From Patescibacteria group bacterium (GTDB lineage: Bacteria; Patescibacteriota; Patescibacteriia; UBA1558; UBA10009), in the NCBI GenBank assembly GCA_041662565.1, contig JBAZSE010000005.1, positions 402-64,401 on the forward strand: a stretch of DNA of 64,000 nucleotides, in the 5' to 3' direction. The first letter of the stretch is position 1. Each line of letters opens with the position of its first letter. The translations under genes and the position numbers were made by a program. This document shows positions 10,774-60,900 of this stretch, one piece after another. The notes below the pieces were generated by a model that did not search any database, had not been told where the DNA came from, and worked only from the letters and a program-made list of their open reading frames with translations.

Positions 10774-11445
10774 ATGTCCACATTATATATAGTAGCTACC
10801 CCGATCGGTAATTTAGAAGATATCACCTTAAGAGCTCTTAGAATTCTTAAAGAAGTTGATTTTGTATTGTGCGAAGATACCAGGGTTACGAGGAATTTAT
10901 TGGCACATTACCAAATTAATACGCCTACCTTGTCTTTTCATCAGCATTCCACCGGATTGGAAGTAAATAAGTTGATTAATTTAATTAGAGAAGGAAAAAA
11001 TTTGTCTTTGGTGACGGATGCCGGTACTCCCGGTGTAAGCGATCCGGGCGGAGTATTGGTGGAAAAGGTAATTAAGGAATTTGGCGATCAGGTCAAAATT
11101 GAAGCCATTCCCGGGCCTTCGGCAATCACAGCGGCAATTTCCATTGCCGGGTTGCCATTGGATAAATTTTTATTTTTGGGTTTTTTGCCCCATAAAAAGG
11201 GTCGGCAAACATTGTTAAAAGAAATCGCTAATTCAAATTACCCCGTTATTTTATACGAATCGGTCCACCGCATTGAAAAATTATTGGATGAGTTGTCTGG
11301 TAATAACTATCAGTTGGTAGTTGCCAGAGAATTAACTAAAAAGTTTGAAACAATTTACCGGGGAACGGCGGAAGAAATTAAAATCCAGTTAAAGCCAGCA
11401 GAAGTGAAGGGGGAATTTGTTGTAATAATTTCAAAAAATGAGTAA
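10774..11445 (+). CDS. rsmI: 16S rRNA (cytidine1402-2'-O)-methyltransferase
   Basis: LYIVATPIGNLEDITLRALRILKEVDFVLCEDTR is the RsmI/tetrapyrrole-methylase-fold N-terminus. Confidence 0.85.
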   Translation: MSTLYIVATPIGNLEDITLRALRILKEVDFVLCEDTRVTRNLLAHYQINTPTLSFHQHSTGLEVNKLINLIREGKNLSLVTDAGTPGVSDPGGVLVEKVIKEFGDQVKIEAIPGPSAITAAISIAGLPLDKFLFLGFLPHKKGRQTLLKEIANSNYPVILYESVHRIEKLLDELSGNNYQLVVARELTKKFETIYRGTAEEIKIQLKPAEVKGEFVVIISKNE

Positions 11446-12880
11446 AAAATTTTATATTACCACCGCCATACCTTATGTTAATGCCCGTCCGCATATTGGC
11501 TTTGCTTTGGAAGCAGTGCAGGCCGATGCTTTGGCTAGATATCATCGCACTTTAGGCGAGGATGTATTCTTTTTAACCGGCACGGATGAAAACAGCTTAA
11601 AAAACGTTCAAGCCGCGGAAAAAGAAGGCATTAGCGCGCAAGAGCTGTGCGATCGCAACGCCAAAGTTTTTTTGGAATTAAAAAACGCCCTTAATTTGTC
11701 ATTTGATTCATTTATTAGAACAACCGAAGAACGCCATTTTAGCGGGGCGCAAAAATTATGGTCTGGGTGCCAGCCACAAGATATTTATAAAAAGAAGTAT
11801 CAGGGTTTTTATTGCGTTGGCGGCGAAGCTTTTTATCTGGAAAAAGATTTAATCGAAGGGTTATGCCCGGAGCATAAAACCGCGCCCGATTTGATTGAAG
11901 AAGAAAATTATTTTTTCAAGCTTTCAAATTATCAGGATAAATTATTAAAATTAATTGAATCAGACGAGTATAAAATTACGCCAGCCACCAAAAAAAATGA
12001 AATTACCAGCTTTATTAAAATGGGATTGGAAGATTTTAGCATTTCCCGCTCAACTGCTCGGGCTCATGGCTGGGGAGTAAGTGTTCCAGACGATGCCTCG
12101 CAAATAATGTATGTCTGGTTTGACGCTTTATCTAATTATATTACAGCTTTGGATTATTCATCCGAAGGCGACTTATTTAAAAAATATTGGCCGGCCGATG
12201 TGCATGTGGTAGGCAAGGGGATTATCCGGTTCCACGCTGTTTACTGGCCAGCCATGTTAATGAGCGCCGGTTTGGAAGTTCCTAAAGAATTGTTTGTTCA
12301 TGGATATGTTAATGTTGGTGGAGAAAAAATGAGCAAGAGTTTGGGTAATGTGATTGATCCTTTTGAATTGGTTTCCAAATACGGCACCGATGCCGTTCGT
12401 TATTATCTGCTCAAGCAAATTCATCCGGTAGAAGATTCCGATTTTACGATTGAAAAATTTGAAGAAGTTTATAACGCGGATTTGGCCAATGGGCTGGGGA
12501 ACCTCGTTTCCAGAACAGCTAATTTGATTGAAAAGAATTTTGATGGGAAACTTAAAGCTCAAAACTTAATTGAGCTCAGCTCGATAGAGCTAAAAACTAA
12601 TTTTGATAAATATATTAAAGAATATAGATTTGATTTGGCGCTTAAGGAAATTCAGGAAATGATTACGGCTACCGACCAGCTGATTGATCAACAAAAGCCC
12701 TGGGTTTTGGTTAAAACCGATTTAAAAAAAGCAGAAGAAGTTTTGGTTCAGGCAGTTAGCCAAATTTTATCCGTAGCCGAAAGTTTAAAGCCATTTTTAC
12801 CTCCTACAGCGGATAAAATCATCGTTCAGTTTACTGCCGAAAAGATAGTTAAAGGCGAATCGTTGTTTCCAAGAATTTAA
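11438..12880 (+). CDS. metG: Methionyl-tRNA synthetase; carries an in-frame palindromic mini-element insertion at 12554-12604
   Basis: YITTAIPYVNARPHIGFA (HIGH region) and KMSKSLGN. The inserted peptide is ..KAQNLIELSSIELKTNF.. Confidence 0.9.
   Translation: MSKKFYITTAIPYVNARPHIGFALEAVQADALARYHRTLGEDVFFLTGTDENSLKNVQAAEKEGISAQELCDRNAKVFLELKNALNLSFDSFIRTTEERHFSGAQKLWSGCQPQDIYKKKYQGFYCVGGEAFYLEKDLIEGLCPEHKTAPDLIEEENYFFKLSNYQDKLLKLIESDEYKITPATKKNEITSFIKMGLEDFSISRSTARAHGWGVSVPDDASQIMYVWFDALSNYITALDYSSEGDLFKKYWPADVHVVGKGIIRFHAVYWPAMLMSAGLEVPKELFVHGYVNVGGEKMSKSLGNVIDPFELVSKYGTDAVRYYLLKQIHPVEDSDFTIEKFEEVYNADLANGLGNLVSRTANLIEKNFDGKLKAQNLIELSSIELKTNFDKYIKEYRFDLALKEIQEMITATDQLIDQQKPWVLVKTDLKKAEEVLVQAVSQILSVAESLKPFLPPTADKIIVQFTAEKIVKGESLFPRI
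12554..12604. repeat. Palindromic mini-element copy inserted in-frame within metG
   Basis: AAAGCTCAAAACTTAATTGAGCTCAGCTCGATAGAGCTAAAAACTAATTTT; both arms match the reverse complement of the 1602-1647 copy. Confidence 0.75.
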
Positions 12881-12885
12881 GTTTT

Positions 12886-13032
12886 TAAAGCGAGCATGGG
12901 CAAGTAAAATTTTTTTCGGTCTGAGACGGGTCCCCCCGAACGAGCCTGGGCGAGCTACAAGCGAGACCCTGGCGAGTTGAGGGAGGGAGGCGAGGACAAA
13001 AAAATTTTTGCTTGGCCAGGCTAGCGTTCAAC
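12886..13032. repeat. GC-rich palindromic element, subfamily B
   Basis: Core GGCGAGTTGAGGGAGGGAGG; near reverse complement of the 18287-18421 copy. Confidence 0.75.
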
Positions 13033-13053
13033 TAATCATTAATTTATAATCAT

Positions 13054-13620
13054 ATGTCTACCATTGATATCATTATAATCATCATCTTGGCGCTGTTTAT
13101 CTGGAAAGGCGTTAAACTTGGCCTAATTGAAGCAGTGGGCGGTATTATCGGCCTATTTATGGGTGCTTGGCTGGCCGGCCGCTATTATGCCCAAGCCGCC
13201 GAAATGATTAAAGGTCTGTTGTTCGGTTCGGAAATTTTAGCCAATGTTTTAGGTTTTATTTTGGTGTTTATCGTTATTAACCGAGGTATTGCTTTGTTGT
13301 TTTGGATTGCCGATAGGGTATTTCATATTATTGCCATTATTCCGTTTTTAAAAAGCATTAATTATTTTTTGGGCGGAATATTTGGATTAATTGAGGGTGT
13401 TATTTTTATCGGCATTATTGTTTTCTTTTTAACTTTGGTGCCTTTTACAGAAAAGTTTCAGGAAAAAATAGCCAGTTCCAGATTTTCCGGAATTTTTGCC
13501 ACGGTTGGTAAAATTGCCGATCCGTTTATTCCCGATACTTTAATAGATTTGCCGTTTGATTTACCCAATGTTGGAGATACTTTAAAAGATATTAATTTAA
13601 GCATTCCTCAAATGAAGTAA
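13054..13620 (+). CDS. CvpA family membrane protein
   Basis: A four-TM small membrane protein; the N-terminus IDIIIIIILALFIWKGVKLGLI is typical of colicin V production protein CvpA. Confidence 0.55.
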   Translation: MSTIDIIIIIILALFIWKGVKLGLIEAVGGIIGLFMGAWLAGRYYAQAAEMIKGLLFGSEILANVLGFILVFIVINRGIALLFWIADRVFHIIAIIPFLKSINYFLGGIFGLIEGVIFIGIIVFFLTLVPFTEKFQEKIASSRFSGIFATVGKIADPFIPDTLIDLPFDLPNVGDTLKDINLSIPQMK

Positions 13621-13627
13621 TTTTTTT

Positions 13628-14986
13628 ATGCTCATAGACACTCACGCTCATCTAAATTTTAGGGCTTACGATATTGATAGGGAAGAGATTGTTACACGTT
13701 GTGCCAAAAAGGGCATGGCAGTTGTTAACGTTGGCGCGCAATACCAAACCAGCAAGAGCGCGGCCGCGTTGGCATTAAAGAATGAAAATTTTTACGCCAC
13801 AGTGGGCCTGCATCCAATCCATGCTTTTGATGAAATTTTTGACGCGGCCGCTTACGAATCATTGTTAAACCCTAAAGTAGTCGGAATCGGCGAATGTGGT
13901 TTGGATTATTGGTGGTTTAAATACCTTAAAGAGCCCTATAAAATAGTTTTGTTGCACGGTTGGGGCGGTAGTAAGGATGAAAGGTTTTTTATTTGGCTGG
14001 ATGAAGAGCTGACTAAACTTGGTCACACCGTCATTCGCTTTAATTTTCCCGATACCGATAATCCCAATCAAGAAGCGTGGTTAAAAGAAATTAGCAAGCA
14101 AGTGGGCTATGTTAATGGCAAAACATTGCTAGTAGGTTTTTCTTTGGGCGGGGTTTCCATTTTAAGATTTTTGGAACAGTTGGATGAAGATGCAACCATA
14201 GCTGGTGCTTACTTGTTAGGAACTCCGGCTCAAAATCCGGGCTATCCGGAAATAAAAGATTTTTTTAAAACCGATTTTGATTGGCAACACATTAATTCGG
14301 TTTGTAAAAATTTTAACATTTACAGTTCCACTAATGATGAGGTGGTGCCCGCGGAGCATGGCTTAAAATTGGCGGAAAAACTTAAAACCGAGGTTAAATC
14401 CATTAAAGACGCCTGGCATTTTAATCTAGAAACCATTCCAGAATTGCTGATAAATATCAATGAAGATATTATTGAGGTTGAAAAAAATTTACCGACCATA
14501 GAAGGAGTGATTAAAAAACAGGAAGAAATTTTTATCCAACAAATCAAATTTGCCCAAAAATACAACCTTGCCTTAATGTTGCATGGTCGCAATGGCTTAG
14601 AGGGCAGGGATGTTTACGCCGAAATGCTGGAGATCCTTAAAAAGGAAAAAATTGAGCGGGCTGTTTTTCATTGCTATGGCGGAACGCTGGCAATGGCTCA
14701 ACAAATTGTTAAGGCCGGTTATTATATCGGTATAGATGGCCCGGTTACTTATAAAAAGAAATCGGAAGAACTTCAGACGGTTGTCAAGGAAATTCCTTTG
14801 TCCAGTTTGTTATTGGAAACTGATGCTTGTGGTCCTTATTTGACTCCAGAGCCATATCGAGGACAGCGCAATGAACCGATTTATATTGAGCTCATTGCCA
14901 GTAAAGTCGCCGAATTAAAGGGTTTGTCAAAAGATGAAGTTATTGAACAAACCTGGCAAAACGCTAAAAAACTTTTTAAAATTTAA
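13628..14986 (+). CDS. TatD-family metal-dependent hydrolase with an internally inserted YdeN/RBBP9-type alpha/beta serine-hydrolase domain
   Basis: TatD N-terminus (DTHAHL ... GIGECGLDY) and TatD C-terminus (LMLHGRNG ... FHCYGG ... LLETDACGPYLTPEPYRG). These flank roughly 195 aa that match the YdeN family (IVLLHGWGGS, GFSLGG, RFLEQL, STNDEVVP, HF). Confidence 0.8.
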   Translation: MLIDTHAHLNFRAYDIDREEIVTRCAKKGMAVVNVGAQYQTSKSAAALALKNENFYATVGLHPIHAFDEIFDAAAYESLLNPKVVGIGECGLDYWWFKYLKEPYKIVLLHGWGGSKDERFFIWLDEELTKLGHTVIRFNFPDTDNPNQEAWLKEISKQVGYVNGKTLLVGFSLGGVSILRFLEQLDEDATIAGAYLLGTPAQNPGYPEIKDFFKTDFDWQHINSVCKNFNIYSSTNDEVVPAEHGLKLAEKLKTEVKSIKDAWHFNLETIPELLININEDIIEVEKNLPTIEGVIKKQEEIFIQQIKFAQKYNLALMLHGRNGLEGRDVYAEMLEILKKEKIERAVFHCYGGTLAMAQQIVKAGYYIGIDGPVTYKKKSEELQTVVKEIPLSSLLLETDACGPYLTPEPYRGQRNEPIYIELIASKVAELKGLSKDEVIEQTWQNAKKLFKI

Positions 14987-14992
14987 TTTTTT

Positions 14993-16048
14993 ATGGAAAT
15001 ACTATTAATTATAACTTTAGTAGTCATTGTTGCGGGCTTTGCCGTTGTCTTTGTTTTCTTAAATAAAAAACCGGTTGAATCGAATAAAAATGACCAATCC
15101 ATGTTAATGCTGCAAAACCAGCTTAACGAACTTAATAAAACGCTGGATAGCAAATTGCACCAATCATCGCAGGTTATGCAACAGCAGTTTTCACAATCCG
15201 CCAACATTATTCGTGATGTTACCGAGCGTTTAACAAAGCTGGATGAAACCAATAAGCAGGTGGTGGGTTTTGCCGATCAGTTAAAATCGCTTCAAGATAT
15301 TTTAAAAAATCCCAAACAGCGCGGGGTGGTAGGGGAGTATTATTTGGAAACTTTGCTAAAAAACGTTATGCCGCCCGGCAGTTACCAAATGCAATACGAT
15401 ATGGGTGAGGACGAAAAAGGAAATAAATTAATTGTTGATGCCATTGTGAGGGTTAAAGATAAAATTATTCCCATTGATTCAAAATTTTCTTTGGAAAATT
15501 ATAACCGTTTGGTGGTGGAGCATAATGAAGCCGAAAAAGATCGCTTGGAAAAATTGTTTGTCGGAGATTTAAAAATGAGGATTGTCGAAACTTCCAAATA
15601 TATCCAGCCAAGCAAGGGCACCATGGATTTTGCCTTCATGTTTATTCCGCACGAAGCCATTTATTATGATTTATTAATCAATAAAATCGGCGCGGTAACC
15701 GAAGATACCGAAAATTTAATTCAGCGGGCTGCGGGCAAATACAAAGTTATTATTGTTTCGCCAACTTCCTTTTTGGCCTATTTGCAAACTGTTCTGCAAG
15801 GTTTGCGGGCTATGCAGATAGAAGAATCCGCCAAAGAGATTCGCAAGCGAGTGGAGTTATTGGGCAAGCACTTATTAAGTTACGATACTTATTTGCAAAA
15901 ATTAGGCAGTAATTTGGGCACCACGGTAAATATGTACAACAGCGCTTATAAAGAATTCGGTAAAATAGAAAAAGATGTGGTTAAGATCGCCGGCGGAGAG
16001 GCCAAAATCGAGCCCTTAGAGATAGCCAAACCTAAATTAGACGAATGA
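14993..16048 (+). CDS. rmuC: DNA recombination protein RmuC
   Basis: An N-terminal TM helix, a long coiled coil and the RmuC C-terminal domain (FAFMFIPHEAIYYDLL). Confidence 0.75.
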   Translation: MEILLIITLVVIVAGFAVVFVFLNKKPVESNKNDQSMLMLQNQLNELNKTLDSKLHQSSQVMQQQFSQSANIIRDVTERLTKLDETNKQVVGFADQLKSLQDILKNPKQRGVVGEYYLETLLKNVMPPGSYQMQYDMGEDEKGNKLIVDAIVRVKDKIIPIDSKFSLENYNRLVVEHNEAEKDRLEKLFVGDLKMRIVETSKYIQPSKGTMDFAFMFIPHEAIYYDLLINKIGAVTEDTENLIQRAAGKYKVIIVSPTSFLAYLQTVLQGLRAMQIEESAKEIRKRVELLGKHLLSYDTYLQKLGSNLGTTVNMYNSAYKEFGKIEKDVVKIAGGEAKIEPLEIAKPKLDE

Positions 16049-16049
16049 T

Positions 16050-16598
16050 ATGAAAGAATATTTTGATATTGTTGATGCCAATAATCAGCCGACCGGTGAA
16101 AAACGATTGCGTTCGGAAGCGCATACTTTGGGTTTATGGCATCGCACTGTACATATTTATTTTTTTAGACAAGTGGCTGGTCATTTAGAATTTTTAGTAC
16201 ATTTAAGATCAAAAAACGTTGATTCGCATCCCGACAACTGGGATACGCGTTTTGGTGGACATCTTAAAGCCGGAGAAACTTATGAACAAGCGGCGTTGAG
16301 TGAGGTTGAAGATGAAGTCGGTTTAAAGATAAATGTAAGTTCTTTGATTAAAGGTTTGGTTCGTGTAAATAATAAAGAAAATAATCGAGAATTTTCACAG
16401 GTTTATTACTATGAGTTTCTTGGAGAACCTGATGATTTGTTATTTAAAGACGATGAAGTTCAATCGGTTAAATGGTTAAAAGCAAGCGAGATCATTGAAG
16501 GATTAACAAATAATTCTGAACAATGGGCAGGGGGTTTAGCGGGGTTTAAAGCAATTTTAGAATATCTAGAGGATTATTTGAATAATAAGAATTATTAA
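16050..16598 (+). CDS. NUDIX hydrolase
   Basis: Nudix box GGHLKAGETYEQAALSEVEDEVGL. Confidence 0.8.
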   Translation: MKEYFDIVDANNQPTGEKRLRSEAHTLGLWHRTVHIYFFRQVAGHLEFLVHLRSKNVDSHPDNWDTRFGGHLKAGETYEQAALSEVEDEVGLKINVSSLIKGLVRVNNKENNREFSQVYYYEFLGEPDDLLFKDDEVQSVKWLKASEIIEGLTNNSEQWAGGLAGFKAILEYLEDYLNNKNY

Positions 16599-16656
16599 TA
16601 TAGAAGATTATTTGGCTAAAATTAGCCATTTTTTTAAGTTGATATTTTTTAGGTAC

Positions 16657-24744: not shown

Positions 24745-27700
24745 ATGACTTACGCTGATTCTCTTAATCCGGAGCAAAAAAAGGCCGTAGAATACACCAA
24801 GGGCCCGCTATTAATCGTGGCCGGCGCCGGTACCGGTAAAACAACGGTTATCTGCGAACGGATCAATTTTTTAATTACCAAAAAAAATTTACAGCCCAAT
24901 CAAATTTTAGCCCTAACTTTTACCGAAAAAGCCGCCGCCGAAATGGAAGAAAGGGTGGATAAAGCCCTGCCTTACGGTTATATCGATTTATGGATTTCCA
25001 CCTTCCACAGTTTTGCCGAAAGATTATTACATGAGCATGGTTTGGATATCGGCTTAAGCGATGATTTTAAATTATTGGATCAAACCGCTTCCTGGCTGTT
25101 GGTGCGCAATAATTTGGATAAATTCAATTTGGATTATTACCGACCGCTGGGCAATCCCAATAAATTCATCCATGCGTTGTTAAAGCATTTTTCCAAATGC
25201 AAAGATGAACTTATCAAACCAAAAGATTATTTGGACTACGCTGAATCATACCGTTTGGATAATGATTTAAGAAAAGATGAATCCGCCTTCGCCAAGGCTT
25301 CGTCGGACCAAGGGGATGCCGCCATGGAAGTTAAGCGTTTGGAAGAACTAGCTAATGCTTATCATGTTTATCAGCAGTTGTTGCTGGATAATAATTATTT
25401 GGATTTTGGCGACTTAATTAATTATGTGTATGAGCTTTTTTTAAAGCGTCCGCAAATTTTAAAAAAATACCAAGAGCAGTTTAAATACATTTTGGTTGAT
25501 GAATTTCAGGATACCAATTACGCCCAGTACCAATTAATCAAGCTTTTGGCCGGAACAAAAAATAACGTCACGGTAGTGGGGGATGACGACCAATCAATTT
25601 ATAAATTCCGCGGGGCTTCTATTTCTAATATTTTGGAATTTAAAAAAGATAACCCCAAATGCTTGGAAATTTATTTAACCACCAATTACCGGACCAAGCA
25701 GAATATTTTGGATGTTGCCTATAAGTTTATCCAGCTTAATAATCCCAATCGGTTGGAAGCGCAGTTAAAAATCAAAAATAAATCGAGCTCAGCTCGACAA
25801 AGCTCAAAGCTCAAGACTCCAGCCAAAAGTTCAAGATCAAAATTTACCAAAGAGTTAATCGCTTCCAGAACAGGGCAGGGGATTATTGAGCATTTGCACG
25901 CGCCAACGCTGGATGACGAGGTGGCAATGGTGATCAATAAAATCGGCCAGCTTTATCAAAAAGAACAGGGTCTTTCGTGGTCCAATTTTGCCATTTTAGT
26001 TAGAGCTAACGATCAGGCCAGGCCGTTTATCGAGGCCCTGGAAAGAGCGGCTGTGCCTTACCAATTTGTGGCTTCCCGCGGGCTTTATGCCAAACCCTTG
26101 GTGTTAAATTTAATTGCTTTTCTGCGCTTGTTGGATAACTACCATGAATCCGATGCTATGTACCGCTATTTAACTTTACCGATTTTTGCCTTACCTCAAG
26201 CGGAATTGATTAAAATCACCCACGAAGCCAATAAAAAAAGATGGACTTTATACGAAACCGTTAAACAGGTTCGTTACTTATTGCATCTATCGCCTGATGC
26301 GCAAAAAGGTCTGGATGTGGCTTTAAATTTTTTGGAAAAATATCTGGCCCGCGCCAAAACGGAAAAATGCAGCCGTTTGGTTTTTGATTTTTTAAACGAA
26401 TCAAATTATTTAAAATATATCGATACCTTACCCGAAGGCAAAAAGCGCCAAGAATTTTCTTATCTTTCCCAGTTTTACAAGCGCATTAAAACTTTTGAAG
26501 AAATCAATGATGATAAATCGGTTAAAAATTTCCTCAACCAGTTGGGTTTGGAATTGGAATCAGGCGAGCAGGGTGATCTGGCGGCCTTAAACGAAGATGA
26601 AGGTCCGGAAATGGTTAAAGTGATGACGGTGCACAGTGCCAAGGGTTTGGAATTTAAATATGTTTTTATCGTTAATTTGGTGGATATGCGCTTTCCCACT
26701 CGTGAGCGGCACGATCCTATCCAATTGCCCGATAAATTAATTAAAGAAATTGTGCCGGAAGGGGATATTCATTTGCAGGAAGAAAGACGATTGTTTTACG
26801 TTGGTTTAACCCGTGCTCGCGACGGTTTGTTTTTAACTTCGGCCGAAGATTACGGCGGGGTTAAAAAGAAAAAGATTTCCGTTTTTTTAACCGACCTTGG
26901 GTTCAAGCAGCCGGAGCATTTAACTTTTGTTAAAGAAAAATTGGAAACAGTGGAACAAGTGCAAGGTACTGCCAAAGAAACGATTAAAGAATTTTTGCCA
27001 GCCAAATTTTCTTTCACCCAAATCAAGGATTTTCTTGCTTGTCCTCGGTCGTATTATTACAAATACATATTAAAAGTCCCTATGCAGGGTAATAATTATT
27101 TTAGCTTTGGTTCTTCCATTCACCTGTCTTTGCAAAAATTTTACGAAGAAGTCAAAAGAAGAAAGGGAAGCGCGCAAACCGGTTTGTTTGGTCCGGTTTC
27201 GCAACCGAATTTGTTTGGCCAGAGTAATGTTTTAACTCAAGGGGACCCCTCGACGCGGCTCGGGGCAGTTCTCAAATCCTCTAGCCCAAAGTTAATTCGC
27301 GATTTAATTAGTTTAGAGGAGTTAATTAAATTTTACCAAGAGAACTGGATCGAGGACTGGTATGCTTCAAAAGAGCAGAAAGAAAAATATTTCAAATTAG
27401 GCAAGGAAATTTTAAAAAACTTTTACCATAGCGATTATTTGGAGCAATCCAATCCGGTTTATTTGGAAAAAGGTTTTGGTATTAAAGTGGGTGAATTTAG
27501 TTTAACCGGTAAAATTGATAGAATAGACCGCGTGCAAAACGGTTTAAAGATTATTGATTATAAAACCGGCCAACCCAAGGAAAAATTGGAAGCCGATGAT
27601 AAAGACCAGTTGTTAATTTACCAAATGGCTGCTGCGCAATTGTTTAACGAACCAATAGGTGAGCTGGCTTATTATTATTTGGAAAACGATACTCAAGTGG

Positions 27701-27837
27701 TTTTTTTGGGTAAGGAAAAGGATATGGAAAAATTGCAAGAAAAAATTATCACCACCATCAATCAAATCAGAGATTTTGACTTTTTGGCCTTTGTAGAGAG
27801 CCACGGACAGTGTGATTATTGCAAAGAGATTATTTAA
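24745..27837 (+). CDS. UvrD/PcrA-type SF1 helicase fused to a C-terminal RecB-family PD-(D/E)XK nuclease (AddA-like). It carries an in-frame palindromic mini-element insertion at about 25775-25830.
   Basis: Walker A AGAGTGKTT, helicase motifs, a nuclease motif GKIDRIDRV...IIDYKTG, and Cys residues (CPRSYYY, CDYC) suggesting an Fe-S-type nuclease domain. Confidence 0.8.
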   Translation: MTYADSLNPEQKKAVEYTKGPLLIVAGAGTGKTTVICERINFLITKKNLQPNQILALTFTEKAAAEMEERVDKALPYGYIDLWISTFHSFAERLLHEHGLDIGLSDDFKLLDQTASWLLVRNNLDKFNLDYYRPLGNPNKFIHALLKHFSKCKDELIKPKDYLDYAESYRLDNDLRKDESAFAKASSDQGDAAMEVKRLEELANAYHVYQQLLLDNNYLDFGDLINYVYELFLKRPQILKKYQEQFKYILVDEFQDTNYAQYQLIKLLAGTKNNVTVVGDDDQSIYKFRGASISNILEFKKDNPKCLEIYLTTNYRTKQNILDVAYKFIQLNNPNRLEAQLKIKNKSSSARQSSKLKTPAKSSRSKFTKELIASRTGQGIIEHLHAPTLDDEVAMVINKIGQLYQKEQGLSWSNFAILVRANDQARPFIEALERAAVPYQFVASRGLYAKPLVLNLIAFLRLLDNYHESDAMYRYLTLPIFALPQAELIKITHEANKKRWTLYETVKQVRYLLHLSPDAQKGLDVALNFLEKYLARAKTEKCSRLVFDFLNESNYLKYIDTLPEGKKRQEFSYLSQFYKRIKTFEEINDDKSVKNFLNQLGLELESGEQGDLAALNEDEGPEMVKVMTVHSAKGLEFKYVFIVNLVDMRFPTRERHDPIQLPDKLIKEIVPEGDIHLQEERRLFYVGLTRARDGLFLTSAEDYGGVKKKKISVFLTDLGFKQPEHLTFVKEKLETVEQVQGTAKETIKEFLPAKFSFTQIKDFLACPRSYYYKYILKVPMQGNNYFSFGSSIHLSLQKFYEEVKRRKGSAQTGLFGPVSQPNLFGQSNVLTQGDPSTRLGAVLKSSSPKLIRDLISLEELIKFYQENWIEDWYASKEQKEKYFKLGKEILKNFYHSDYLEQSNPVYLEKGFGIKVGEFSLTGKIDRIDRVQNGLKIIDYKTGQPKEKLEADDKDQLLIYQMAAAQLFNEPIGELAYYYLENDTQVVFLGKEKDMEKLQEKIITTINQIRDFDFLAFVESHGQCDYCKEII
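25775..25830. repeat. Palindromic mini-element copy inserted in-frame within the helicase-nuclease gene
   Basis: AAATCGAGCTCAGCTCGACAAAGCTCAAAGCTCAAG; core TCGAGCTCAGCTCGA is a perfect palindrome. It encodes the low-complexity peptide NKSSSARQSSKLKT. Confidence 0.7.
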
Positions 27838-29832: not shown

Positions 29833-32265
29833 ATGAAAATTTCCTTAAATTGGTTAAAAGAATACATTGATTTGCCCAAAGGCGTGGCTCCCGAGGACAT
29901 TGCTTTAAAGTTGACCATGGCCACGGTGGAAGTGGAAGAAATTATTGATCAGCAGCGTGATTACGCCAATATGGTGGTAGGCGAGATCGTGGATATCATT
30001 GATCATCCCCAAGCCGATCGCCTTAAGGTTTGCAAAGTTAAGGCAGGTAAAAATTCTTACCAAATTGTTTGCGGCGGCAATAATATTTATAAGGGCTTAA
30101 AAGGAATTTTGGCTTTGCCTGGAGCGCGTGTTAAATGGCACGGCCAAGGTGCTCCGGTTATTTTGGAAAAAACCGCAATCAGAGGAATTGAAAGCGAAGG
30201 CATGCTGTGCGCCGCCGAAGAAGTTGGTTTGCCTGCCGATACTCATCCAAGTGGCGGAGTGGTGGATTTGCCAGGCGCCAAAGCCGGTCAAAGCGCTGCC
30301 GAGGCCTTGGGATTAAATGATGTTATTTTTGAAGTTGATAACAAATCCGTTACCAACCGGCCTGATTTATGGGGACACTATGGCGTAGCGCGGGAAATTG
30401 CCGCTTTGTATAATTTAAAGTTAAAAGATTTAAAAATAGATAAGATTAAAGAGGGTAGCGCAGCAGATTTAAAAATCGAAATTAACGATGCCGAAAATTG
30501 CAGTCGCTATATGGGCGCTATTGTTGGTGGGATAAAAATCGCTCCTTCGCCCGCTTGGATGCAATTGGTTTTAGGCGCAGTTGGGGTGAGGCCGATTAAT
30601 AACATTGTTGATATTACCAATTTTGTCATGTTGGAATTGGGCCGTCCTTCCCATGCTTTTGATAGGCGCGAGATAGCCAATGATACCATTATTGTTCGGC
30701 GCGCTCAGGCAGGTGAAAAATTTAAAACTTTGGACGGGCAAGAAAGGCAGTTAACAAGCCAAATGTGTTTGGTTTGCGATGCAACTCGCCCGGTTGATTT
30801 GGCCGGCATTATGGGCGGAGAAAATTCGGAAATAAAAACCGATACCGCCGAAGTTATTTTTGAACTGGCTAATTTTAATCCGGTTAATATCCGTAAAACC
30901 GCCCAGGCCTTAAATTTAAGAACAGAAGCGGCCGCTCGTTTTGAAAAAGGGCTGGATCCGGATTTGGCAGAACTTGGATTAAAGCGGATTCTTACTTTGG
31001 TTCATCAACTTTTGCCCGAAGCAACTGTTATCAGTAAGATTGTTGATGTTAATTTGGTAAAGGCGGAAGAGCGTTTAATCGAGCTTAATCTGGATTTTTT
31101 ACATAAGCGCATTGGCCAAGAAATTCCCAAAAAAGAAGTGATAGGAATTTTGGAACGCTTGTCTTTTGCCGTTAAAGATAAAGGCGAAACATTGTTGGTT
31201 ACTCCGCCGTCATTTCGGGTGGTTAAGGATATTAGCTGCCCCGAAGATCTGGTAGAAGAAGTAGCCAGGATTTACGGTTACGGCAATATTGTGCCGCAAT
31301 TGCCCATAGTGGATATGACGCCGCCGGAAGAAAATCTTAATTTTTTGGTGAACCGGAAAGTTAGGGATATTTTATCGGGCACTCTTGGCCAAACCGAAGT
31401 TTATAATTATTCTTTTGCCCCGCTTAAAAGCCAGCAGTTACTGGGTTTTAAAGCGGATGAACATTTGGAAGTGGCCAATTATTTATCCGATGATTCGCGC
31501 TATTTAAAAGTTTCTTTATTTGAAAATTTGATCAGGAATTTGGAAAGCAATTTGCGTTTTTGCGAAAATGTGCGGATTTTTGAGCTTGCTCGGGCGTATC
31601 TTAAAACCGAAGGCAGTTTTAGCGTTGATGCCGGCCAAAAGTTGTTTTTAGCCAAGCAAGATAGAATGCTGGCAGGTATATATTTTGAGGCCAAAAGTTC
31701 CAATTCTTTTTTAAAGACCAAGGGTTTGCTGGAAATTATGTTATCTCGTTTGGAAATAGATTATCACTATGCCGAAACATCTTCCGCCAAAAGTATTCCG
31801 GCTTTTATAGCCAAAGAAAGCTATTTGGCTATTAAAACCGGTGATGTTACTTTGGGCTGGATAGGGGAGTTAAATACCGAATTAGCCCAAAGTTTGGGTG
31901 CTAAAAACAGTGTTGGCGTTTGGCAATTATCTTTTGAATTATTGGTTAAGTTTTTTCAGGATAAGAAAAAGTATCAAACTTTGTCCAAATATCCCAGTAT
32001 GGTTTACGATTTTTCCATCATTGTTGATAAAGAGGTCGCCTGGGCGCAAATAAAGCAAGAAGTTATAGAGTCAAACAATTTGGTTAAAAGAGTGGAATTA
32101 TTTGATGTGTTTAATTTGGAAAAATTGGGGCCCGACAGTCGGTCGTTGGCTTTTCATGTCACATTGCTGGATGAAAATAAAACTTTAACTTCGGCCGAGG
32201 GGGATGAAATAAAAAATAAAATCATTAATTTGTTAAAAACTAAGTTTAAGGCGGAGGTCAGATAA
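29833..32265 (+). CDS. pheT: Phenylalanyl-tRNA synthetase beta subunit
   Basis: MKISLNWLKEYIDL N-terminus, B3/4 and B5 domains and an FDX-ACB C-terminus; 810 aa. Confidence 0.9.
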   Translation: MKISLNWLKEYIDLPKGVAPEDIALKLTMATVEVEEIIDQQRDYANMVVGEIVDIIDHPQADRLKVCKVKAGKNSYQIVCGGNNIYKGLKGILALPGARVKWHGQGAPVILEKTAIRGIESEGMLCAAEEVGLPADTHPSGGVVDLPGAKAGQSAAEALGLNDVIFEVDNKSVTNRPDLWGHYGVAREIAALYNLKLKDLKIDKIKEGSAADLKIEINDAENCSRYMGAIVGGIKIAPSPAWMQLVLGAVGVRPINNIVDITNFVMLELGRPSHAFDRREIANDTIIVRRAQAGEKFKTLDGQERQLTSQMCLVCDATRPVDLAGIMGGENSEIKTDTAEVIFELANFNPVNIRKTAQALNLRTEAAARFEKGLDPDLAELGLKRILTLVHQLLPEATVISKIVDVNLVKAEERLIELNLDFLHKRIGQEIPKKEVIGILERLSFAVKDKGETLLVTPPSFRVVKDISCPEDLVEEVARIYGYGNIVPQLPIVDMTPPEENLNFLVNRKVRDILSGTLGQTEVYNYSFAPLKSQQLLGFKADEHLEVANYLSDDSRYLKVSLFENLIRNLESNLRFCENVRIFELARAYLKTEGSFSVDAGQKLFLAKQDRMLAGIYFEAKSSNSFLKTKGLLEIMLSRLEIDYHYAETSSAKSIPAFIAKESYLAIKTGDVTLGWIGELNTELAQSLGAKNSVGVWQLSFELLVKFFQDKKKYQTLSKYPSMVYDFSIIVDKEVAWAQIKQEVIESNNLVKRVELFDVFNLEKLGPDSRSLAFHVTLLDENKTLTSAEGDEIKNKIINLLKTKFKAEVR

Positions 32266-32743: not shown

Positions 32744-34844
<2,101 letters not shown>

Positions 34845-34846
<2 letters not shown>

Positions 34847-54462: not shown

Positions 54463-56217
54463 TTATTTCAATTCAGCGGATCGTTTGGCTATCAGTTGTT
54501 GAATTTGGGTGATAAATTCCTTTGAATCAACTTCCCATAATTCTTCAAAACCCCTAACCCTGACGCTCAAATTTTTTGAATTCATTTCTTTATCGCCGAT
54601 AACCAAAGTGTAGGGGATTTTTTCGGCGCTCGATTTGCGGATCTTTTTGCCTACAGTTTCGCTGGTTAAATCCAATTCCACGCGAATATTTTGGGCTTTA
54701 AATTGAGCGGCCAAATTTTGGCAAAACTTTTCGTGCGCTTCGCCAACATTAAGAATTTTAATTTGCACAGGCGAGAGCCACAAGGGGAATGCTCCGGTGT
54801 AGTGTTCAATCAGCACGCCTAAAAATCTTTCCAATGAGCCCAAAATTGCCACATGCAATACGGCCGGACGGTGTTTTTGCCCATCTTCGGCGATGTAATG
54901 CAAATCAAAATTTTCCGGCTGATTAAAGTCCAATTGAACGGTGGTTAACTGCCAACTTCGCCCAATTGCATCTTTAACCATGATATCAATTTTGGGGCCA
55001 TAAAAAGCCGCCTCGCCCTTTTCTACTATATACGGTTTGCCCCAATCCTTAGCCGCCTGAATCAAAATGTTTTCCGATTTTTCCCATAACTCATCCGAAC
55101 CAAAGTATTTACTTTTGTTTTCTTGATCGCGAACAGAAATTTGAACCAAAAAATTGGTAAAGCCAAAGGCTTTGTAAACAGTATCCATTAAACCTAAAAT
55201 CATGGTAATTTCGGAATTGATTTGATCGTGCCGTACAAAATGATGGGTATCATCTTGTGTTAGGGCTTTAACCCGAAGTAGGCCCGAAAGTTCGCCGGAT
55301 TTTTCATTGCGGTAAACGGTAGTATTTTCGGCATAACGGATTGGTAAATCTCGGTAACTATGAGGAGTGGCATTAAATAGTTCAAAATGATGCGGGCAGT
55401 TCATGGCTTTAAGGGCAAATTCATCGCCCTCGGCATCTTTCATTAGTGGCATCATGGCATCATATTTGCCTAAGTGACCGCTTTTTTTGTAAAGTTCAGC
55501 TTTGGCAATATGGGGAATGCTAACAAAATTGTAACCACGGTTGATTTTTTCGGCTCTCACAAATTCAGCTAATTCTCTTAGCAGAAGAGCTCCTTTGGGT
55601 AAAAACATGGGCAAGCCAGGCCCAACTAGTGGGCTAAATGCAAATAACTCTAAAGCCGGCCCTAATTTTTTGTGGTCGCGTTTTTCCGCTTCAGAAAGCA
55701 TTTTTAAATAGTCGGCCAATTCATCTTTTGATTCAAATGCCAAACCGTAAATGCGGGTCAGCATTTTATTTTTTTCATCGCCTCGCCAGTAAGCGCCGGC
55801 TAATTTATGCAAACAAAAACTTTCTGGATCGATTTTGTTAAAATTTTCCGTGTGTCCGCCGCGGCACAAATCCCTAAAATCACCGGATTGGTAAACGGTT
55901 AATGTTTGCCCCTCACCGGAAAATTCTTCAATCAGTTCCAACTTGTAAGGATTATCGGAAAATTCTTTTTTAACTTCGCTTGCCGAAAGTTCGTGTCGGT
56001 CAAAGCTTTTCCAGGTGGTTAGCAGTTTTTTCATCCGCTTTTCTATTTTTGGCAGATCCGCTTCGGTAATGGGCGAAGCAAATTCAAAATCATAATAAAA
56101 GCCGTTATCAATGGCCGGGCCAATAGTTCTTTTGGCATCGGGCCAAATGCTTAAAACGGCCGCCGCCAGTAAGTGGGCGAGCGAATGGCGTTGTTGGGAT
56201 AATTGTTCTTGGGTCAT
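54463..56217 (-). CDS. thrS: Threonyl-tRNA synthetase (lacks the N-terminal TGS domain)
   Basis: Editing domain RHSLAHLLAAAV...GPAIDNGFYYDFEF, class II motifs and an anticodon-binding C-terminus. Confidence 0.9.
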   Translation of the reverse strand: MTQEQLSQQRHSLAHLLAAAVLSIWPDAKRTIGPAIDNGFYYDFEFASPITEADLPKIEKRMKKLLTTWKSFDRHELSASEVKKEFSDNPYKLELIEEFSGEGQTLTVYQSGDFRDLCRGGHTENFNKIDPESFCLHKLAGAYWRGDEKNKMLTRIYGLAFESKDELADYLKMLSEAEKRDHKKLGPALELFAFSPLVGPGLPMFLPKGALLLRELAEFVRAEKINRGYNFVSIPHIAKAELYKKSGHLGKYDAMMPLMKDAEGDEFALKAMNCPHHFELFNATPHSYRDLPIRYAENTTVYRNEKSGELSGLLRVKALTQDDTHHFVRHDQINSEITMILGLMDTVYKAFGFTNFLVQISVRDQENKSKYFGSDELWEKSENILIQAAKDWGKPYIVEKGEAAFYGPKIDIMVKDAIGRSWQLTTVQLDFNQPENFDLHYIAEDGQKHRPAVLHVAILGSLERFLGVLIEHYTGAFPLWLSPVQIKILNVGEAHEKFCQNLAAQFKAQNIRVELDLTSETVGKKIRKSSAEKIPYTLVIGDKEMNSKNLSVRVRGFEELWEVDSKEFITQIQQLIAKRSAELK

Positions 56218-57943: not shown

Positions 57944-60900
57944 TTATCTTAAAATAATATTTTCGCGGCCAATAAGAGTGATTAATTTTTCTATCAGTTC
58001 TCCTGTAACTTTAACGGTTTGACCGGTTTTAATCGTTTTATTGTCTATTTTTAAGAAAACTACGGCTTGGCCAGGAAAGTTTGGCAGAATATTTTTTAGT
58101 TCCAGCAAATATTTTTCCTGTTGTTCGGCATTAAGCTTGATTTCCAAACTGGAAAATTTTAAATTTTTATCAATCGGCCGAACACTGTCGCAAATCATTT
58201 TCATGGAGCCGTCTTTATCGGTTGTTTTGCCTTCTACCACTACGATTTCATCTTCCAGCCAGGCATCCTTGGTGCTTTCCAAAATTTTGGGAAAAACCAA
58301 AACTTCCGTACTGCCGGTTTCATCGGCTAAAGTCACAAAATACATGGCCTGGTTGTTTTTGGTCATCACGCGGTGGATATTATGGATTATGCCTGCCACC
58401 CTGGCCATTTTGCCGTTGCCCAAAGGCATTAATTGGCAAATATTGGTCCTGCCTTCCGGCAATAAATGCTTTACGCTGTTCATGGGATGATCTGATAAAT
58501 AAATGCCCAGCAATTCTTTTTCCCATTTTAGTTTAAGAACCTCATCTTCTTCCGGCGCGTTTTCCAGTTTTAAAACGGGTTTGGCCAAAGCGGAATTGGC
58601 AAATAAATTAACCTGCCCGTTGGAGTCATTATTTTTTTTGCCGAATTTTAAAAGTTTTTCTATGTTAAACAACAATTCATTGCGTAAACCGAATTTATCC
58701 AGTGCGCCCGATTTAATCAGCGATTCCAAAGATTTTTTATTCAAATCCTTATCTTGGGTTCTTAGCAAAAAATCTTGCAAATCTATAAACGGCCCGTTGG
58801 CTTTTCTTTCCTTGATAATCGCCTTGGTTAAATGCTCGCCAACGTTTTTAATGGCCGAAAGCCCAAAGCGGATGCGTGGTTGATCCTTGGTATCTTCGGC
58901 CACCACCATAGTAAAAATAGTATAGCTTTCGTTAATATCGGGCGGAAGCACCTTAATGCCCATTTTTTCGCACTCTTCTATTTCCAAGGCCACGCGATCG
59001 ATGTTTTCATTATCGGCAGTTAAAAGAGCCGCCATAAACTGGGTAGGAAAATTGGCTTTAAGGTAAGCGGTTTGGTAAGAAATCATAGCGTACGAAGCGG
59101 CATGAGCGCGGTTAAAGCCGTATCGGGCAAAAGGCAAAATGTATTCCCAGATTTTTTTAGCCACCCGCTTATCAACTTTATTGGCAATCATGCCCTTAAT
59201 CATTTTTTCTTCCTGCTCTACCATCAGTGATTTGATTTTTTTGCCAACGGCTTTTCTTAACACATCGGCTTCGCCGTAGGTAAAGCCGGCCAGCGCTTGG
59301 GCAATTTCGGTAATTTGTTCCTGATAAACGGCAATGCCGAATGTTCTTTTTAAAATCGGCTCCAACTTGGGATGCAGATAGGTAATGGTGGTTTGGCCCT
59401 TTTTACCGGCAATGTAATCGGGAATAAGTTCCATGGGGCCCGGACGGTATAAAGAAATCATCACAATAATATCTTCAATATCAGTTGGTTCCAGCTGGAT
59501 TAAATATCTTCTCATGCCCGATGATTCCAATTGGAATACGCCGGTGGTGTGTCCGCGTTGCAATAGCTTAAATGTTTTTTCGTCATTTAAAGGCAGTTTA
59601 TCAATATCGATTTTTTCTCCCGTGGTTTTGTGGATGATTTCCAAAGCGGTTTCAATAATCGTTAGGTTTTTTAAACCCAAAAAGTCCATTTTTAACAAAC
59701 CCAAAGCCACTACCGGATGCAAAGAATATTGGGAAACAATGGTTTTGTCGTCGCTGGAGGCGTATTGCAGGGGTACATGGTTATCCAGCGCATCGGGTGT
59801 AATTAAAACACCGCAAGCATGAGTGGAGGCGTGCCTGGCCACACCTTCCAATTTTTTGGAAAAATCGATTAAGTTTTTGGCTTGCGGATCGTTTTGGTAA
59901 ATTTCTTTAATTTCCGGAACCTTGGTCACTGCTTCCGTTAAGCCCATAAACATAGGGATCAGCTTGGCAATTTTATCGCAGTAAGAATAAGAGATGCCTA
60001 AAACCCGGCCCACATCTCTAATCGCGGCCCGGGCCGCCATAGTACCAAAGGTGATAATTTGCGAAACTTGCCCCGCACCGTATTTTTGGGTTACGTAGGC
60101 CAAAACCTCGTCGCGCCGGGTATCAGCAAAATCCAAATCAATATCGGGCATGCTGACTCTTTCGGGATTTAAAAAACGTTCAAAAATCAAATTAAATTTA
60201 ATCGGGTCAATATTGGTGATATTGATTAAATAGGAAACTAAACTGCCCGGCGCGCTGCCGCGGCCTGGGCCGACCACAATGCCATTGTTTTTGGCCCAAT
60301 TAACAAAATCTTGGACAATTAAAAAGTATGAGGCAAAGCCGGTTTTGGCGATTATTCCCAATTCATAATCCAACCGCGTTCTAATAATTTCGTTGATGCC
60401 TTCGGGGTAGCGCTTGTTTAACCCTTGCTCGCATAAATTTTTTAAATAACTGTTATCGGTTTGGCCACTTGGCACGGCAAAAAACGGCAAAAGCGTTTTA
60501 TCCAATTCAATTTCTAGTTCGCACATGTCGGCGATTTTTTGGGTATTGGCCAGGGCTTCGGGGATATGGGCAAAAGCATTGCTCATTTTTTCCGGCGAAG
60601 CAAAAGAGGCATCCAACCCCATCATATTCATCCGATCGGTATCGGCTTGCTTACGTTTGGTTTGAATGCAGAGCAAAATATCCTGGGCTTCGGCATCTTC
60701 CGGATTAAGATAATGAACATCATTGGTGGCCACCAAAGGAATATCCAGCTCTTGAGAAAATTTAATCAATTGTTCATTAACCACGGCTTGTTCATCCACA
60801 TTAGGATGATGCTGAAGTTCCAAATAAAAATTATTTTGGCCAAAAACACGTAAATATTTTAGAGCTAATTCTTTGGCGCCTTTAATATCGCCGGATGTTA

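Follow-up and report, generated by a model that had tools for sequence, protein, structure and literature searches.

Bacterial TatD and YcfH are Mg2+-dependent 3′–5′ exonucleases and apurinic/apyrimidinic (AP) endonucleases tied to the repair of oxidative damage, and TatD, YcfH and YjjV all combine 3′-exonuclease with AP-endonuclease activity and protect against H2O2 (PMC4176340, PMC10085689). A passage in PMC10711561, citing Wydau 2009, states that E. coli YcfH and Synechocystis DTD3 hydrolyse D-aminoacyl-tRNA and that E. coli TatD does not. Hydrolases of a second family, represented by B. subtilis YdeN (1uxo) and human RBBP9 (2qs9, 7oex, 9fcr), are known as stand-alone proteins of ∼180–195 amino acids (aa). 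To our knowledge no function has been assigned to YdeN, and we know of no physiological substrates for RBBP9. Biochemically, RBBP9 is a serine aminopeptidase that frees aromatic or hydrophobic residues and needs a free α-amine; the acyl-enzyme intermediates that have been trapped are consistent with “amide (or ester or thioester)” substrates (PMC8866121). Here we describe a gene in which the two families are combined. It lies in a 64,000-nucleotide stretch of DNA from a Patescibacteria group bacterium (contig JBAZSE010000005.1, positions 402 to 64,401; hereafter the window) and encodes a TatD hydrolase within which a complete YdeN/RBBP9-type serine hydrolase is nested.

The gene is a single unbroken open reading frame (ORF) of 452 aa, with no internal stop codon and no change of frame. 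Its parts, in window coordinates and with residue numbers of the encoded protein, are as follows.

13628–14986, plus strand: whole gene, TatD with nested serine hydrolase (from the ORF and Pfam)
13628–13924, plus strand: TatD N-terminal part, residues 1–99, strands β1–β4 (from the TatD profile and the AlphaFold2 model)
13643–13645 and 13649–13651, plus strand: H6 and H8 of the HxH motif, TatD N-terminal part
13811–13813 and 13892–13894, plus strand: H62 and the bridging Glu, E89, TatD N-terminal part
13925–14479, plus strand: YdeN/RBBP9-type α/β serine hydrolase insert with linkers, residues 100–284, at the TatD β4–α4 loop (“Loop1”)
13943–14431, plus strand: match to Pfam Ser_hydrolase (PF06821), residues 106–268
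14141–14143, plus strand: Ser172, nucleophile of GFSLGG, in 17/17 family members
14336–14338, plus strand: Asp237 of the triad (STNDEVVP), 17/17
14417–14419, plus strand: His264 of the triad (AWHF), 17/17
14480–14983, plus strand: TatD C-terminal part, residues 285–452, helix α4 and strands β5–β8
14582–14584, 14669–14671, 14816–14818 and 14822–14824, plus strand: H319, H348, E397 and D399, TatD C-terminal part

Scans with hidden Markov models (HMMs) divided the protein between the two families. Pfam TatD_DNase (PF01026; E 7e-68, 229 bits against a cut-off of 27) matched in two stretches, the best of which aligned residues 293–451 with profile positions 102–253, and NCBIfam TIGR00010 also matched in two stretches (222 bits against a cut-off of 206). 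Pfam Ser_hydrolase (E 5.6e-18, 65.9 bits against a cut-off of 22) aligned residues 106–268 with positions 1–157 of its 172. Boundaries were derived from a TatD reference profile built from 268-aa insert-less Patescibacterial TatDs, in which residues 1–99 correspond to profile positions 1–101 and residues 285–452 to positions 103–268. Because the profile is contiguous across the break, the insert comprises residues 100–284, that is, 185 extra residues (window 13925–14479). Against S. aureus TatD (2gzx), residues 1–98 align with chain residues 1–101 and residues 298–451 with chain residues 107–254, and by this reference the insert measures ∼199 aa, compared with 185 aa when the closest insert-less orthologues are used.

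The initial annotation, made from the sequence alone, had proposed a single 452-aa ORF with TatD at both ends and a YdeN/RBBP9 domain along the whole of the intervening segment. The two Pfam scans, which it named as a check, bear this out, the TatD match being split and not contiguous. The span that it gave for the insert (13910–14497, plus strand, residues 95–290) brackets the insert correctly; its figure of 195 aa becomes either 185 or ∼199 aa, depending on the reference. All of the motifs that it quoted (HxH, GFSLGG, STNDEVVP and others) are present, with the nucleophile elbow, Asp and His as named. The family assignment also stands: a profile of the insert family searched against the PDB matched YdeN (1uxo, residues 7–171 of 192) with E 3e-25 and RBBP9 (residues 3–182) with E 3e-19.

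The host protein belongs to the HxH Group II (YcfH/YabD-like) class of TatDs, whose members include S. aureus TatD/YcfH (6l25, 2gzx), T. maritima TM0667 (1j6o) and E. coli YcfH (1yix). Using phmmer, it scored 160 bits against S. aureus YcfH, 93.6 against E. coli YcfH, 93.3 against YjjV and 86.5 against E. coli TatD. It shares superfamily and HxH class with DTD3 and E. coli YcfH, neither of which has an inserted domain, but it is not clearly nearer to E. coli YcfH than to E. coli TatD (93.6 versus 86.5 bits).

An artefact, be it of frameshifting, of chimeric assembly or of two genes fused in gene calling, has next to no probability, given TatD sequence on both sides of the insert, an intact frame, conserved synteny and recovery of the same architecture, without indels and down to 52% identity, in 17 protein clusters from four data sources; the fusion of separate genes by frameshift, raised initially as a possible objection, is thereby refuted. 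An intein or other self-excising mobile insert was likewise ruled out: the insert is an α/β hydrolase and not a HINT fold, and its junctions (...FKYLKEPYK... and ...EVEKNLPT...) carry no splicing motifs. Base composition gave no anomaly (GC fraction 0.386 in the insert, 0.391 in the TatD C-terminal part and 0.447 in the N-terminal part).

Structures were predicted with AlphaFold2, using a 30-sequence alignment for the window protein (predicted local distance difference test, pLDDT, 93.5; predicted template modelling score, pTM, 0.83). A 52%-identical relative (P0017) gave a pLDDT of 90.8 and a pTM of 0.79 with an unchanged layout of secondary structure. The chain is predicted to leave the barrel right after strand β4 (84–93, GECGLDY) via a short helix (95–101), to form the α/β domain (105–259), and to pass through a long helix (271–287) before entering TatD helix α4 (291–311). 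This answers the initial suggestion that prediction be used to ask whether a barrel loop is replaced: the insert sits at the β4–α4 loop. Folds were compared using Foldseek against the PDB, with template modelling (TM) scores normalised to the target for barrel matches. Skipping the insert leaves a complete TatD barrel, matched by alignments that extend across the insert (TM 0.89 to 6l25 and 2gzx, 0.86 to 1j6o), and the insert superimposes on YdeN (1uxo, TM 0.91, root-mean-square deviation (rmsd) 1.5 Å over 183 columns) and RBBP9 (9fcr, TM 0.90). No solved chain in the PDB matched both domains in these searches.

Compared with other Group II TatDs, the Komeilibacteria protein (as we call it from its distribution, below) has the same complete (β/α)8 barrel, all metal ligands and catalytic acids, and a locus beside the gene for methionyl-tRNA synthetase (MetRS); it differs in that their β4–α4 loop of 5–15 residues (Loop1) is a 185-residue second enzyme. 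Compared with YdeN and RBBP9, the insert matches along its full length in sequence and fold (rmsd 1.5–2.1 Å), with the GxSxG elbow, Asp and His in register and hydrophobic residues where RBBP9 has its Phe140/Leu141 pocket, but it is nested within another enzyme whereas the known members stand alone.

In S. aureus TatD, Loop1 flanks the active site together with Loops 2 and 3 and forms a crystal dimer contact (PMC7201278). In the predicted structure the insert replaces this loop, and thus one wall of the active-site groove; since Loop1 flanks the active site, the second enzyme is placed at the edge of the catalytic face. The crystal dimer contact would not be able to form in the same way. In pyruvate kinase (B domain) and IMPDH (CBS pair), too, a β–α loop at the catalytic face of the TIM barrel gives rise to an extra domain. 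Those are regulatory or lid domains, whereas the TatD insert is a complete second enzyme with its own triad.

Two surface positions of the TatD part differ according to whether the insert is present. Position 70 is E or D in insert-less proteins and P, V or I in insert-bearing ones, and position 12 is E or K in the former and R, Q or K in the latter. They lie in the loops after β3 and β1, respectively, and the change is from acidic to basic or hydrophobic. From the high pTM for a chain of 267 + 185 residues, the fixed linker lengths and the switching of positions 12 and 70 with insert status, we infer that the two domains are probably held in a fixed orientation.

Both active sites are conserved. 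In 60 aligned sequences, TatD residues H6, H8, H62, E89, H319, H348 and D399 are invariant and E397 is retained in at least 90%; the equivalents in S. aureus TatD are H6, H8, H63, E92, H128, H153, D204 and E202 (same order, with E397 last). The insert triad (S172, D237 and H264) and the GxSxG elbow are present in 17/17 inserts, and stand-alone relatives retain the triad Ser, Asp and His in 126, 126 and 124 of 127 sequences. Between the window and two relatives, the proportion of nonsynonymous differences (pN) in the insert is 0.10–0.13 and that of synonymous differences (pS) 0.68–0.77. The corresponding rate ratio (dN/dS) is ∼0.06–0.08 for the insert, where computable, and 0.06–0.14 for the TatD halves. 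The insert is under strong purifying selection. Pairwise identities of insert and TatD part are correlated across the 17 proteins (r = 0.79, mean difference −2%), so the insert has co-diverged with its host.

An identical protein is present in NCBI, JGI, ENA and Logan, labelled “TatD family hydrolase [Patescibacteria group bacterium]”. The search for relatives that had been recommended at the outset recovered 16 further clusters (52–85% identity, 450–479 aa) with the same TatD and PF06821 content, giving 17 in total (52–100% identity). Where their source names are informative they read Komeilibacteria; otherwise they give only “Tat protein ... TatD”. When aligned with insert-less relatives, the 192-residue segment holding the insert has equal length in 17/17. 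Four GTDB species representatives carry the architecture, namely three Candidatus Komeilibacteria metagenome-assembled genomes and Parcubacteria GW2011_GWF2_45_11. The insert profile was also searched exhaustively against 1.84 billion 50%-identity representatives. Among the best 150 of the 2986 matches, one was nested in TatD (P0004, 343 bits, insert at 97–288); the remainder scored at most 143 bits and were almost all stand-alone proteins of ∼180–195 aa, with some longer fusions. Note that more divergent TatD-nested inserts, below 105 bits, would fall outside these 150. Among the matches listed, the nested architecture is confined to one small clade of candidate-phyla-radiation bacteria, the Komeilibacteria-type Patescibacteria.

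The architecture is new, although both families are known and the protein has been public under the label of “TatD family hydrolase” only. We found nothing in the literature on a TatD with a nested hydrolase, which agrees, as does the absence of a solved chain with both domains, with the initial impression that it had not been described. It is uncommon for one catalytic domain to be nested inside another. The graft appears rigid, stands on the rim of the host active site in the model and is under purifying selection, yet it is present in some lineages and absent from their sisters; it thus offers a natural experiment on how composite active sites originate and spread by recombination.

Among the matches listed, the closest stand-alone relatives of the insert are P0124 (L016 2648–3214) and P0123 (L017 659–1207), both on archaeal contigs, one with PTH2, NurA and Rpb6 and the other with TBP. 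PTH2 (peptidyl-tRNA hydrolase) is three genes away from P0124, and P0123 adjoins a HIT/DcpS-type hydrolase. The insert may be archaeal in origin.

Gene order was the same in every locus examined, whether or not the insert was present: (AI-2E transporter)–(TP_methylase)–MetRS–CvpA–TatD–RmuC–ATP synthase, with occasional extra genes. The insert-bearing gene is the orthologous housekeeping TatD and not a paralogue, and the window contains neither another TatD nor another YdeN-like sequence. In trees of the TatD part, of its N-terminal part and of its C-terminal part, insert-bearing proteins are interspersed with insert-less ones. Flanking genes bear this out: the insert-bearing locus L010 and the insert-less locus L008 are each other's closest relatives (CvpA 81% identical, RmuC 92%, TatD N-terminal part 81% and C-terminal part 76%), and their identity falls to 40–55% only around the junction. 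No direct repeat was obvious on inspection of two short L010/L008 junction stretches; no repeat search was made. The MetRS of the insert-less locus L014 is 76–79% identical to those of the insert-bearing window, L007, L004 and L005, which are 72–81% identical among themselves. Sister lineages differ in whether they have the insert, which makes it an accessory module.

The surrounding genes form a mosaic. L010 MetRS is 52% identical to that of the window and 72% to that of L001, and L010 RmuC is 82% identical to that of the window; L004 RmuC is 96% identical to that of the window, with MetRS at 76% and TatD at 73–80%. Between the window and L007, pS is lower in the TatD N-terminal part (0.46) than in the C-terminal part (0.65) or the insert (0.77). 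Such patterns suggest frequent homologous recombination at the MetRS–CvpA–TatD–RmuC locus (window 11438–16048) among Komeilibacteria lineages. We infer one ancient insertion, after which alleles with and without the insert were exchanged by homologous recombination. The closest insert-less sisters have probably lost the insert secondarily, because their position 70 still has the insert-type residue. Repeated independent de novo deletions were judged unlikely: insert-less loops across the tree share the motif H-[PLI]-T-F-x-R, which is absent from insert-bearing proteins (where FKYLKEP is found instead), and this common motif is better explained by allele exchange. Within-genome paralogues homogenised by gene conversion were also rejected, since both forms occur at the same CvpA–TatD–RmuC position on different contigs; reading the sister pairs as paralogues likewise meets a window with only one TatD and one YdeN-like sequence. 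In the insert-less locus L003 a gene of 328 aa separates TatD from RmuC; it has no Pfam match and so does not stand out as a displaced hydrolase.

A parallel was found in leucyl-tRNA synthetases (LeuRS) of DPANN archaea. A 1169-aa archaeal LeuRS fragment (P0126, L015 3372–6881) ranked seventh among the listed matches to the TatD-insert profile; in it, two tandem PF06821 domains directly follow the “QRNWIGKSEG” motif and precede the CP1 editing domain, after which come a NUDIX domain and the remainder of LeuRS. We then compared its 120 closest LeuRS clusters, which come from Pacearchaeota, Nanoarchaeota and Woesearchaeota, with one record labelled Patescibacteria. A domain matching the TatD-insert profile is carried by 55 of them (P0271, P0274, P0288, P0289, P0307 and about 50 more). 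In five full-length proteins scanned with Pfam, PF06821 lies between the catalytic N-terminal half (∼12–225) and the editing domain, whose match picks up again at profile position 17–22; some also have a NUDIX domain nested farther along. Protein lengths follow the content, being ∼810 aa for plain LeuRS, ∼960–980 with NUDIX, ∼1000–1040 with PF06821 and ∼1150–1200 with both. The triad Ser and His are found in 55/57 of the LeuRS-nested domains, and the Asp position is Asp in 41 and Glu in 12. NUDIX domains occur at the same insertion sites; one record has an insert named HAD-type by its source, without such a Pfam match.

As in TatD, the PF06821 domain of LeuRS is nested rather than terminal and neighbours a site where a nucleic-acid 3′ end is handled, here the CP1 editing domain. 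Unlike the TatD case, the host is LeuRS, the organisms are archaea, NUDIX is often added, P0126 has two copies and the Asp is sometimes Glu. By analogy, the parallel supports a link with aminoacylated 3′ ends. It fits equally the view that house-cleaning hydrolases (NUDIX, YdeN-like, perhaps HAD-type) accumulate in permissive loops of essential genes in reduced genomes. We found nothing in the literature on LeuRS with nested PF06821 or NUDIX domains, and present labels hide both cases (“TatD family hydrolase” or “class I tRNA ligase family protein”). Other close YdeN-like domains are fused to NUDIX, cytidylate-kinase-like, peptidase S51 and methyltransferase partners (P0261, P0133, P0204 and P0253).

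Because the catalytic residues are conserved, a bifunctional nuclease/esterase, as the initial annotation envisaged, is the best-supported reading of the protein. Judged from these residues, it is fairly probable that the gene encodes a nested bifunctional enzyme, in which a metal-dependent 3′-end hydrolase carries a Ser172-dependent acyl or aminoacyl hydrolase on the rim of its active site. The host would be a housekeeping HxH TatD barrel whose Loop1 was exchanged for a complete YdeN/RBBP9-type hydrolase. The barrel would work as in insert-less orthologues, as a metal-dependent 3′–5′ exonuclease and AP endonuclease on nucleic-acid 3′ ends, and possibly also as a D-aminoacyl-tRNA deacylase, as reported for YcfH and DTD3. 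The insert, rigidly docked on the catalytic-face rim, would add a second activity through Ser172–Asp237–His264, namely the hydrolysis, via an acyl-enzyme, of an ester or amide whose acyl part would most likely be an aminoacyl group with a free α-amine, as for RBBP9. It would be dispensable for TatD function, being swapped or lost by homologous recombination among Komeilibacteria. That both sites act on one substrate is possible.

Several observations weigh against this bifunctional reading. Glu108, which anchors the α-amine in RBBP9, is only approximately matched by Glu208 (15/17), in a loop whose alignment is uncertain. The replaced loop lines the nucleic-acid groove, and the insert might restrict nuclease activity rather than preserve it. 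In addition, two residues, Cys401-Gly402 (window 14828–14833; ETDA-CG-PYL), are inserted between Asp399-Ala400 and the following Pro, and elsewhere among the 60 aligned sequences this insertion occurs only in the insert-less P0020 (L014). The Pro of an Ala-cis-Pro peptide is said to shape the active site of S. aureus TatD (PMC7201278), and to judge by sequence the insertion may perturb TatD catalysis in this genome.

The insert may instead be an independent passenger, a house-cleaning esterase or aminopeptidase carried in a permissive loop of an always-expressed gene, with no mechanistic link to TatD; this would be gene economy in a reduced genome, and it overlaps with the bifunctional reading. 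We regard it as less probable but as a serious contender. It accords with the patchy presence and absence between sister lineages, with the nesting or fusion of YdeN-like domains in unrelated hosts, with NUDIX and possibly other hydrolases at similar LeuRS sites, and with the unchanged catalytic residues of TatD. The linkers, fixed over 52% divergence, the confident orientation and the switch at positions 12 and 70 speak instead for a close interface, maintained by selection, on the catalytic face, although such features show packing and not shared chemistry.

A closer coupling of the two sites would be quality control at aminoacylated tRNA 3′ ends, with the nested hydrolase removing the aminoacyl group and the barrel binding or trimming the 3′ end, so that aminoacyl- or peptidyl-tRNA or aminoacyl-nucleotide esters would be one class of substrate for both domains. 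Pointing this way are the D-aminoacyl-tRNA hydrolysis by YcfH and DTD3, both of the HxH TatD family, that the passage in PMC10711561 reports; the release by RBBP9 of single amino acids with a free α-amine from amide, possibly ester, bonds; the position of the gene downstream of MetRS in every locus examined; the nesting of PF06821 beside the CP1 editing domain of DPANN LeuRS (55/120 closest clusters); and the stand-alone relatives three genes from PTH2 or beside a HIT hydrolase. This support is circumstantial. The LeuRS sites also host NUDIX, and possibly HAD-type, domains and suit permissive sites as well; sister lineages live without the insert; the MetRS–TatD neighbourhood is as conserved in insert-less genomes; and the other fusion partners (cytidylate kinase, methyltransferase, peptidase S51 and NUDIX) are not tRNA enzymes. 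We hold it to be rather unlikely, if worth stating. A wider proposal, which we put forward as speculation of similarly low probability, is that prokaryotic YdeN/RBBP9 proteins are aminoacyl-ester hydrolases acting on aminoacylated 3′ ends (mis-acylated or D-aminoacyl-tRNA, aminoacyl-nucleotides) that were repeatedly grafted beside 3′-end-handling sites in ultra-small bacteria of the candidate phyla radiation and in DPANN, creating composite proofreading enzymes; the grafts would stand at Loop1 of a YcfH/DTD3-type TatD and, in DPANN LeuRS, at the entry to the CP1 editing domain. The choice of hosts, a possibly YcfH/DTD3-type TatD and the LeuRS editing region, does yield a testable hypothesis of aminoacyl-ester hydrolysis at nucleic-acid 3′ ends, and TatD and LeuRS together offer a lead to the role of the orphan YdeN/RBBP9 family.

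In a third scheme the serine hydrolase would clean ends for DNA repair, stripping an acyl or peptidyl adduct (for example, the remnant of a DNA–protein crosslink) from a 3′ end or AP site that TatD then processes. The established activities of TatD, YcfH and YjjV, with their protection against H2O2, would suit this, as would the trimming of N-terminal residues off peptides by RBBP9-type enzymes and the downstream RmuC, which is annotated as a DNA-recombination protein and conserved in all loci. RmuC adjacency, however, is identical with and without the insert, no YdeN/RBBP9 member is known to act on nucleic-acid adducts, and RBBP9 chemistry (free α-amine, one residue per step) is ill-suited to removing crosslinks; we consider the scheme improbable. 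A pseudo-enzyme insert that serves as a non-catalytic lid, gating or recruiting substrates to the TatD site, suits the position of Loop1 on the groove rim but is very improbable with a triad and GxSxG elbow invariant in 17/17 over 52% divergence and a dN/dS of ∼0.06–0.08.

In the window, the TatD-hydrolase gene starts 7 nucleotides past the CvpA stop codon, and RmuC starts 6 nucleotides past the stop codon of the TatD-hydrolase gene. The conserved neighbours are as follows.

11438–12880, plus strand: MetRS, upstream
13054–13620, plus strand: CvpA/Colicin_V, upstream
14993–16048, plus strand: RmuC, downstream
16050–16598, plus strand: NUDIX hydrolase, downstream

The NUDIX gene is two genes downstream of the TatD-hydrolase gene and is followed by a terminator-like hairpin (16613–16628). 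Promoter and terminator scans gave counts no higher than those of shuffled sequence. Among the other large genes of the window, a class I tRNA synthetase of Ile/Leu/Val type is represented at 64–1602 by its C-terminal part, and further housekeeping genes lie at 24745–27837, 29833–32265, 32816–34846, 54463–56217 (minus strand) and 57944–61333 (minus strand); the housekeeping content of the rest of the window comprises a UvrD/PD-(D/E)XK helicase-nuclease, PheT, GyrB, ThrRS and DnaE. No further nested-domain architecture was found among the large window proteins scanned.

A separate variable insertion of 15–22 aa occurs in some TatDs right after the metal-binding “HGRN” (β5 loop). It is present in P0020 (L014 4683–4781), P0004, P0007 and P0009, independently of the status of the hydrolase insert, and is absent from the window gene. 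In L014 its DNA has a GC fraction of 0.56 (0.41 for the locus) and contains the palindrome GGCCAGC-TGA-GCTGGCC; a small palindromic element seems to have inserted there in frame.

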